This document shows, piece by piece, positions 14,084 through 14,267 of a stretch of DNA of 64,000 nt (the first letter of the stretch is position 1; each line of letters begins with the position of its first letter). The translations under genes were made by a program, and so were the position numbers. Origin of the DNA: an uncultured Gammaproteobacteria bacterium (lineage in GTDB: Bacteria; Pseudomonadota; Gammaproteobacteria; Chromatiales; Chromatiaceae); the NCBI GenBank assembly GCA_942491465.1, contig CALOBA010000038.1, positions 66,920-130,919 of the forward strand, in the 5' to 3' direction. The notes beneath the pieces are model-generated. The model was given only the letters and a program-made list of their open reading frames with translations, made no database searches and had not been told where the DNA came from.

Positions 14084-14267
14084 CTAAGGAAGAATTCAGA
14101 AACAACGTGAACATGTCAACTCGTTGTCGTTGTCGTTGTCGTAATCGTCGTCGGATGCTCGATTTCGACAACGACAACGACAACGACAACGACAACGACA
14201 ACGACAACGACAACGAATCCTAGTTGTGCTATTAAGTTGTTTAACTTGTTAGTGAACCGTTACTAAG
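14084..14267 (+). mobile_element. hexanucleotide-hairpin MITE (subfamily 1), 3 x GTTGTC / 8 x GACAAC
   Basis: CTAAG at both ends. Conserved 34-nt left flank, (GTTGTC)3, conserved loop TAATCGTCGTCGGATGCTCGATTTC, (GACAAC)8 at 14167-14214, conserved 49-nt right flank. Homologous copies at 20078-20351 and 45391-45589. Confidence 0.85.

Follow-up and report, generated by a model that had tools for sequence, protein, structure and literature searches.

A probable IS5-like miniature transposable element with a length-variable hexanucleotide hairpin in an uncultured Chromatiaceae bacterium

What are the three look-alike loci of an uncultured Chromatiaceae bacterium in which two complementary arrays of a six-nucleotide unit face each other across a short loop, and how did they come to lie where they are? 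The loci belong to a stretch of 64,000 nt (GenBank assembly GCA_942491465.1, contig CALOBA010000038.1, positions 66,920 to 130,919), which in its entirety is the object of this analysis and is called the window below; the coordinates of the copies are those of the element proper, target duplications excluded. We think it likely, at a probability of roughly 0.78, that the loci are copies of a miniature transposable element bearing inverted repeats (MITE) moved by an IS5-like transposase, that the hairpin at their centre is a microsatellite pair changing length by slippage, and that the whole is probably selfish DNA.

Every copy is laid out in the same order, namely an AT-rich left flank, a short arm, the apical sequence GTAATCGTCGTCGGATGCTCGATTTC, a long arm and a 49-nt right flank (Table 1). 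The arms of the core hairpin are complementary hexanucleotide microsatellites, (GTTGTC)n(GTAATC) on one side and (GATTAC-like)(GACAAC)n on the other, and GACAACGACAAC, with at most one mismatch allowed, occurs 107 times in the window where shuffled sequences lead one to expect 0.11. When the flanks of copy 1 were compared with the window by BLAST, the left one matched copy 2 at 36/36 and copy 3 at 31/32 positions, the right one at 52/53 and 47/50, and no additional left or right flank was found in the window beyond the three copies. The loop is identical in copies 1 and 2 and carries two substitutions in copy 3. An earlier note, made from the sequence alone, had described three homologous loci with ordered flanks, arms and loop, of which flanks and loop are conserved; the sequence reads as described there, with flanks 94–100% identical. 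The long-arm lengths it gave (8, 3+19 and 10 units) were borne out as well, copy 3 having one unit and GAA ahead of its ten. Folded as single-stranded DNA, the copies are more stable than shuffled versions of themselves (z = -5.6, -3.2 and -3.3 for copies 1, 2 and 3), copy 1 reaching -44 kcal/mol. The stem measures ~22–24 bp, a length set by the short arm, and excess units of the long arm stay unpaired. The slippery cruciform proposed in the same note thus holds insofar as the hairpin folds, whereas a full cruciform is restricted to the length of the short arm.

The ends of the copies carry the marks of transposition. Brackets of CTAAG/CTAAG, ATAAG/CTAAG and, in element orientation, CTTAG/CTTAG surround copies 1, 2 and 3, respectively, and their comparison leaves a 3-bp T-N-A duplication (TAA, TAA and TTA) as the one consistent across the copies. 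The left end agrees with the reverse complement of the right end at 16/25 positions, making the two imperfect terminal inverted repeats. They share a TTCA..AACAAG core with both ends of a ~100-bp MITE, family B, as had been noticed before, and also align with both end types of the Thiodictyon elements. Target duplications of TAG, TAA and TTA accompany three of the four family-B copies in the window and, together with the shared end core, mean that one transposase could serve both families. At 38763-38802 lies a lone left half of a family-B MITE (CTAAGTCAAGGTCCAGAAACAAGTGGTGCA) with no partner end nearby. The three copies are small, contain no transposase gene and have as their sole open reading frame (ORF) a low-complexity stretch of 36 codons that is broken in copy 2; their imperfect inverted ends, constant-length duplications and dispersal over unrelated contexts are those of a MITE. 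Size, T-N-A duplications, inverted ends, a palindrome split by one copy and a relative that lacks the element all agree with the earlier note, to which the element had looked like a MITE.

The three insertion contexts are mutually unrelated. Copy 1 sits between the convergent dcd (ending at 14059) and a 236-aa ORF (stop at 14303), copy 2 inside a glycosyltransferase operon, and copy 3 within the remnant of an RNase J/beta-CASP-like gene (45089-45394 and 45589-45720; ...HRSGHPAEDDLRRL, element, DRVQPPALIPVHGAPRHL). Reconstructed to its state before insertion, the latter gene has an in-frame TAA and misses its N-terminal part, so it was probably a pseudogene when copy 3 arrived. Copy 2 interrupts a repetitive extragenic palindromic (REP)-like inverted repeat. 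Deleting copy 2 and one TAA in silico gives GGGTGGATAAGCGCAGCGCATCCACC, which equals the opposite arm, GGGTGGATTAAGCGCAGCGCATCCACC, save for one T, and this regained palindrome is evidence of insertion. The closest available relative is a metagenome contig from ENA, L002 (L numbers are our labels for loci), whose Dcd is 94% identical and which has the same gene order as the window: RND pump, dcd, 236-aa gene, PMT_2, PAP2, sulfotransferase and three glycosyltransferases. In L002 no element separates dcd from its neighbour, and two of its glycosyltransferase genes overlap directly where the window has ~950 extra bp. With ~80–87% nucleotide identity L002 falls short of a clean empty site, yet it is consistent with insertion of copies 1 and 2. 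As to the hosts, the window has ~69% GC, its Dcd shares 90% identity with the Lamprobacter modestohalophilus protein, and L002 encodes flavocytochrome-c sulfide dehydrogenase. The DNA thus probably comes from a purple sulfur bacterium of the Chromatiaceae; its genome is missing from the collections, in which an exact look-up of the Dcd protein gave no match.

Table 1. Coordinates of the three copies, their parts and related features in the window.
Feature	Position	Strand	Detail
Copy 1, element proper	14088-14263	+	176 bp
Copy 1, target duplication	14085-14087 (left), 14264-14266 (right)	+	TAA
Copy 1, left end with terminal inverted repeat	14088-14122	+	GGAAGAATTCAGAAACAACGTGAAC...
Copy 1, short arm	14123-14146	+	(GTTGTC)3, at 14123-14140, then GTAATC
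Copy 1, apical region	14147-14166	+	GTCGTCGGATGCTCGATTTC; inner AATCG/CGATT pairing lengthens stem
Copy 1, long arm	14167-14214	+	(GACAAC)8, all units perfect
Copy 1, right flank with terminal inverted repeat	14215-14263	+	...GTTTAACTTGTTAGTGAACCGTTAC
Copy 2, element proper	20081-20347	+	267 bp
Copy 2, target duplication	20078-20080, 20348-20350	+	TAA
Copy 2, short arm	20116-20133	+	GTTGTC x3
Copy 2, long arm	20160-20177, 20185-20298	+	3 units; GACTAAC (unit plus one base); 19 perfect units
Copy 3, element proper	45395-45585	-	191 bp
Copy 3, target duplication	45586-45588, 45392-45394	-	TTA in element orientation
Copy 3, short arm	45539-45550	-	GTTGTC x2
Copy 3, long arm	45444-45503	-	1 unit, GAA, 10 units
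REP-like inverted repeat interrupted by copy 2	20071-20412	+	GGGTGGA-TAA, element, TAA-GCGCAGCGCATCCACC; opposite arm GGTGGATGCGCTGCGCTTAATCCACCC
Extra sequence relative to L002, ~950 bp	19457-20465		74-unit degenerate tract, REP pair, copy 2 nested in REP
Degenerate tract	19516-19955	-	~74 units (GACAAC/GACCAC/GACGCC...)
Tract within histidine-kinase gene	26394-26451	+	GACAAC units
Small hairpin locus	28985-29048	+	GTCGTTGTCGTGGCGATCGTTGTC, loop, (GACAAC)4; no recognisable MITE ends
Degenerate hairpin locus	37619-37762	+	GACAAC/GACAGC/GATTAC units; immediately adjoins a MITE-A copy
Second hairpin family	53174-53347	-	(GTCGTT)2 GTCGTAATCGTAATCG, loop, 18 perfect GACAAC units along with degenerate ones
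MITE-A	27496-27653, 37462-37619, 53382-53539; related 4420-4506		158 bp, CTAG-bounded, REP-doublet core (GTGGGAGCGATTTGCAATCGCGAC...)
Family-B MITE	29828-29927 (+), 49278-49377, 61104-61203, 62901-63000		Ends share the core of the element's ends

How would such an element move and change? We propose that the element is moved by a DDE transposase whose gene lies elsewhere and which probably stems from an IS5-like lineage duplicating T-N-A. This enzyme would recognise the imperfect terminal inverted repeats of ~25 bp and insert the element at T-N-A sites, in many cases inside CTNAG, and the family-B MITE is probably mobilised by it as well. A matching insertion sequence (IS) would be expected to end in GGAAC/GTAACGGTTCA..AACAAGT. 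The ends of IS5A from E. coli K-12 and those of the element have a GGAAG..(A)ACAAG layout in common, with a 3-nt indel, a likeness of layout only that is at most suggestive; the naming of a T-N-A-duplicating subgroup of IS5 follows the ISfinder classes. After insertion, the arms would behave as perfect tandem repeats, the short one able to pair with the long one in any 6-nt register. Slipped replication intermediates should therefore form easily, and each arm may gain or lose units independently of the other. Replication slippage after copying, which the earlier note had also invoked, is the most likely source of the arm-length change, to judge from arms that differ, as expected, between otherwise near-identical copies; that the long arms are perfect arrays (of 8, 19 and 10 units) speaks for recent change. 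The hairpin may help to bring the ends of the element together or may merely be tolerated, and effects on neighbouring genes, such as the glycosyltransferase operon or a start codon beside a tract, would be by-products.

Is the hairpin peculiar to this element? The two hairpin families of the window share the arm/loop junction GTTGTCGTTGTCGTAATCGT, which made it an informative query for a scan of species-representative genomes. The junction occurs at more than 118 sites in at least 35 such genomes or metagenome-assembled genomes (MAGs), several of them with multiple loci. Most of the matches listed are in Chromatiaceae. A single Thiodictyon MAG has dozens of them, frequently where contigs end, and others are in Lamprocystis, Thiohalocapsa PB-PSB1, Thiocapsa, Thiobaca and Thiorhodococcus. 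Thiodictyon and Lamprocystis have elements of 200–260 bp with the same arms and with duplications of TTA or TGA; one end reads GTAACGAGTCAAGAACAAGTTAAAC and the other, as reverse complement, GGAACGGTTCACTGATAAGTTAAAC. These are clear relatives of the window element. In the Thiodictyon MITEs, whose two ends can be told apart, the conserved 54-nt loop faces one end in some copies and the opposite end in others (L059 versus L083; also L084 and L013), as expected from recombination or template switching between inverted arms, that is, from flip-flop inversion. A different, CTAG-bounded scaffold holds a hexamer hairpin in Thiohalocapsa PB-PSB1, a Chromatiaceae MAG, Thiobaca and metagenome contigs, and the apical motif GTAATCGT(C/G)GTCGG...CGATTAC recurs across scaffolds. 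Bare hexamer hairpins are found at 28985-29048 of the window and in one viral contig. In the latter, a viral or prophage contig (IMG/VR UViG_3300029268_000325; L153, 1715-1775), (GTTGTC)3 GTAATCGTGGTCGGATTGTTC (GACAAC)3 follows directly upon a gene end, without recognisable MITE ends.

A hairpin present in no fewer than two MITE scaffolds whose ends differ, bare, and in other phyla was not invented inside this MITE. Where the earlier note had the interior of a MITE become a slippery hairpin, the hexamer hairpin is instead an older, shared module of a large superfamily of microsatellite-hairpin MITEs in Chromatiaceae, and its core would have been exchanged between MITE scaffolds.

The window itself offers further instances. 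All eight substantial GACAAC-type loci reported before are present, as is a short trace, at 58018-58032. The second hairpin family has a right end resembling that of a CTAG-type MITE (GAATGGTCTCGATACATCCGCAGCGGCGCGCTAG; compared with L028/L115 and L020/L086/L091). MITE-A, the CTAG-type scaffold of the window, adjoins hexamer-hairpin loci in two of its three copies, and ends of its type enclose, in other Chromatiaceae, a hexamer hairpin in place of the REP doublet. A gap of 8 nt separates the tract of ~74 units from the putative ATG (19507) of the glycosyltransferase gene downstream; the tract shifts reading frame twice, leaving no coherent ORF. Another tract lies in a histidine-kinase gene (26200-26640) between the N box (LLDNAVKYT) and the G1 box (DTGCGI); as these stand in different frames, the tract interrupts or frameshifts the gene, a defect that slippage by hexamers could not repair. 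Other repeats of the window stand apart. A unit of 111 bp, unrelated to the hexamer elements, is repeated ~13 times in tandem at 41409-42868 (94–95% matches), each unit with several GC-rich palindromes (GGCGGGACGCCGC, GGGGGCGTCCCGCCCCC, GTCGGCGAGACGCCGAC) and a CTAG. Compared with L002, the window also has ~1.6 kb extra between the genes for the RND pump and the membrane-fusion protein (10384-12164), a stretch that includes a 9-bp tandem repeat (GACGCGAAG x7, 10473-10537).

Beyond Chromatiaceae, the matches listed place the junction at several sites in each genome, in MAGs with the labels Thermodesulfobacteriota, Desulfobacterales, Desulfohalobiaceae and Desulfuromonadales. These matches also include MAGs labelled Haliangium/Myxococcota, Planctomycetota, Kiritimatiellae and Lentisphaeria (the last two of Verrucomicrobiota type), and MAGs bearing the label Fibrobacter/Chitinispirillaceae whose contigs have 37–38% GC, a composition by which they cannot be mis-binned Chromatiaceae. 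Again among the matches listed, an inverted partner arm lies within 220 nt at 43 of 49 sites in Chromatiaceae, 5 of 6 in other Gammaproteobacteria and 17 of 38 in other phyla; on the wrong side, taken as a control, it does so at 0/45, 0/6 and 2/36 sites, respectively. Loops and flanks are unrelated between phyla. Across ~1400 units of GACAAC, positions 1, 2 and 6 are fixed to at least 94% (mostly 97–99%) and position 5 to 90–98%, and positions 3 and 4 hold most of the variation (GATTAC, GACCAC, GACTAC, GATCAC), so that ACGA/TCGT recurs every 6 nt. Either a constraint or slippage that multiplied a few founder variants could lie behind such conservation.

Several details of these distant loci deserve mention. 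A conserved insert of 20 nt, CGYTTCGCTGNCGCTTCACT, a near-duplicate of a 10-mer, breaks the GACAAC arm beside the hairpin in Desulfobacterota and a Haliangium MAG (L014, L039, L109, L111 of the Thermodesulfobacteriota MAG125, L094, L054, L036 and L003). In Desulfobacterota, and in a MAG whose only label is 'uncultured bacterium', genes unrelated to one another have a single-arm tract of the form (GATTAC)(GACAAC)n, often succeeded by a purine-rich stretch, 13–45 nt upstream of their start codons (L037, L097, L109, L111, L027, L038, L082); the genes downstream include malate dehydrogenase-like and glutamate synthase-like ones and lipoproteins. The loci L042 and L068, from MAGs labelled Fibrobacter and Chitinispirillaceae, are 98–99% identical over ~4 kb, which means that the two bins hold a single organism or else that one of the labels is mistaken; they differ in a 7-nt repeat (AAATTCC/AAACTCC) of ~3 versus ~13 units.

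Might the hexanucleotide hairpin itself, rather than the MITE, be the unit that is selected or spreads? We regard it as possible, though unlikely, that (GTTGTC)n(GTAATC)m-loop-(GATTAC)m(GACAAC)n represents an unrecognised class of element in at least five bacterial phyla, with a function or spread of its own, that several unrelated MITE scaffolds have captured; the three copies of the window could still be MITEs, as one carrier among others. Its ACGA/TCGT core might then be read every 6 nt, as DNA or RNA, by an oligomeric protein, or the hairpin might serve as a length-tunable 5′ leader or cruciform. The breadth of the junction matches and the enrichment of partner arms over the control point this way, as do the matches in Fibrobacterota contigs of 37–38% GC, the fixation of unit positions 1, 2 and 6 with variation mostly at 3 and 4, the occurrence of the hairpin both in MITEs (T-N-A-type and CTAG-type) and on its own in a viral contig, and the placement of single-arm tracts, and of the 74-unit tract of the window, shortly before start codons. 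Yet the order GTTGTC-GTAATC was imposed by the junction query itself, there is neither an Rfam family nor a conserved neighbouring gene, and variant units spread by slippage, so that the positional conservation rests on few independent events. As neither loops nor flanks are related from one phylum to another, what the phyla have in common may be just a slippage-prone repeat on horizontally moving MITEs.

The remaining explanations fare worse. Being centred on a hairpin and intergenic, in a genome rich in REP-like palindromes whose CTAG-type scaffold in the window even has a REP-doublet core, the element might be taken for a palindrome of the REP/REPIN type, moved by a Y1 transposase of the REP-associated tyrosine transposase (RAYT) kind and not by a DDE enzyme; with 3-bp target duplications and terminal inverted repeats lying outside the hairpin, we hold this to be very unlikely, and no RAYT gene turned up, though no systematic search for one was made. 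That the element encodes a small peptide, MSTRCRCRCRNRRRMLDF(DN)nES, its arms specifying basic Arg/Cys and acidic Asp/Asn segments, is if anything harder still to believe. An ORF from ATG (14113) to TAG (14221) does span the hairpin of copy 1 (MSTRCRCRCRNRRRMLDF(DN)8ES), both the 3-nt GAA insertion and a 6-nt deletion in copy 3 keep its frame, and the RCRCRN frame is open in two Fibrobacterota loci; since hexamer indels keep any frame, however, frame preservation is no evidence of coding. No Shine-Dalgarno sequence precedes the ATG of copy 1, a one-base insertion brings a TAA after 25 codons in copy 2, long tracts change frame, the loop is inverted relative to the ends in the Thiodictyon relatives, and the 20-nt insert in Desulfobacterota, not a multiple of three, interrupts the arms. 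That a low-complexity tract misled the assembly or the sequencing, finally, has next to no chance of being the answer. Many Thiodictyon MAG contigs do end inside such tracts, from which it follows that the arrays disturb short-read assembly, but the three copies have distinct unique flanks and duplications, and the same architecture is found in the isolates Lamprocystis purpurea DSM 4197, Thiobaca trueperi DSM 13587 and Thiorhodococcus mannitoliphagus DSM 18266 and in the closed chromosome of Thiohalocapsa PB-PSB1.

RNA-based and regulatory readings were considered as well. Rfam gave no match at the gathering score anywhere in the window, the elements drawing only sub-threshold matches to plant microRNA hairpins, and found nothing on the hairpins of eight related loci. 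Scans of the elements revealed neither a promoter consensus nor an intrinsic terminator (GC-rich stem plus T run). A Val/Ile leader peptide of an attenuator (GTT GTC GTA ATC) at a Chitinispirillaceae locus was discarded, there being no start codon in the homologous Fibrobacter locus and no suitable downstream genes. Mutagenesis of the adenines of AAC, as by diversity-generating retroelements, was ruled out because the A of GAC never varies, and a hammerhead-like reading of the GUC, CUGA and GAAAC motifs because the core does not fit.

An IS5-like MITE thus remains our preferred reading of the three copies, and several observations weigh against it. The terminal repeats are weak (64% identity), and no autonomous IS, looked for as inverted ends 0.4–3 kb apart around a transposase, was found in the window or in 150 other loci (~0.9 Mb). 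An exact scan of species-representative genomes with ACGAATCCTAGTTGTGCTAT, from the right flank, gave no match; a metagenome scan with GTTGTCGTAATCGTCGTCGG returned 31 loci, most of them chance coding matches in Asp-rich proteins and none (0/31) with the subfamily-specific flanks. The case for slippage is drawn from paralogous copies and not from one locus in a population, and orthologous loci of the genomes compared, sought for a length change at a single locus, yielded only identical hexamer tracts. Finally, the recurrence of the constrained hairpin in other scaffolds, bare and in distant phyla hints that it may be more than passive cargo.

Where does the element stand among known repeats? 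It resembles the IS5-derived MITEs of prokaryotes in measuring less than 300 bp, lacking a transposase, being AT-richer than its host, and having inverted ends, a 3-bp T-N-A duplication and mostly intergenic sites, some nested in repeats; unlike them, it has as its core a hairpin of two complementary hexanucleotide microsatellites of variable length. MITEs and short interspersed elements of eukaryotes, such as dipteran 'mini-me' and rice Micron, carry or seed microsatellites that expand, but these elements belong to eukaryotes, and in them the repeats are not known to supply the two paired arms of a hairpin. REPs, which go together with RAYT genes, are not known to have target duplications or outer inverted repeats. 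The element shares with REP/REPIN sequences its intergenic hairpins, and one scaffold of the window has a REP doublet in the place that the hexamer hairpin takes up in a related scaffold elsewhere, yet target duplications and outer inverted repeats set it apart. The closest functional analogue is the pneumococcal BOX element. BOX elements of Streptococcus pneumoniae (boxA-(boxB)n-boxC) combine conserved ends with an internal tandem array whose copy number varies by locus and strain, form a stable stem-loop and are the more variable the longer the array (PMC3049150). The boxB module is reported to have ~45 nt and to form one array that is not a paired part of the stem, in contrast to the 6-nt units and two inverted, stem-forming arrays described here; no relationship of sequence is expected.

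Correia/NEMIS and Chunjie MITEs are abundant elements of varying size that fold and that may land inside operons (PMC10969869), as copy 2 has, but they vary by internal deletions and not by a microsatellite, and have other duplications and ends. The terms microsatellite, tandem repeat and simple sequence are all absent from this 2024 review of prokaryotic MITEs (PMC10969869). Simple sequence repeats (SSRs) with units of 6–9 nt are rarely reported in bacteria, one instance being the G-quadruplex heptamer of Xanthomonas and Nostoc (PMC4692102). Such enriched SSRs likewise have longer units strongly over-represented in particular genomes, whereas the present ones are inverted pairs that form hairpins inside transposable elements and have no G-quadruplex potential. 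When measured against phase-variable SSRs, hexamer steps cannot shift the frame and a promoter consensus is absent, although the tracts do lie close to start codons. The literature searched held no description of the hexamer repeat, of its canonical form AACGAC or of MITEs in Chromatiaceae, the Thiohalocapsa PB-PSB1 genome included; together with Rfam, it is in keeping with the earlier remark that no described bacterial repeat class is built this way.

If our reading is true, bacterial MITEs would have a new architecture, that of an element carrying its own rapidly mutating microsatellite pair. Such elements would scatter length-variable tracts into operons, 5′ regions and coding sequence, exemplified here by the glycosyltransferase operon and the histidine kinase, and would break short-read assemblies of Chromatiaceae, as where Thiodictyon MAG contigs end in arrays. 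They would also furnish ready-made variable-number tandem repeat markers for uncultured purple sulfur bacteria. The main interest lies in the constrained hairpin that recurs across scaffolds and phyla: is it a module exchanged between transposons, or is it selected for a function?

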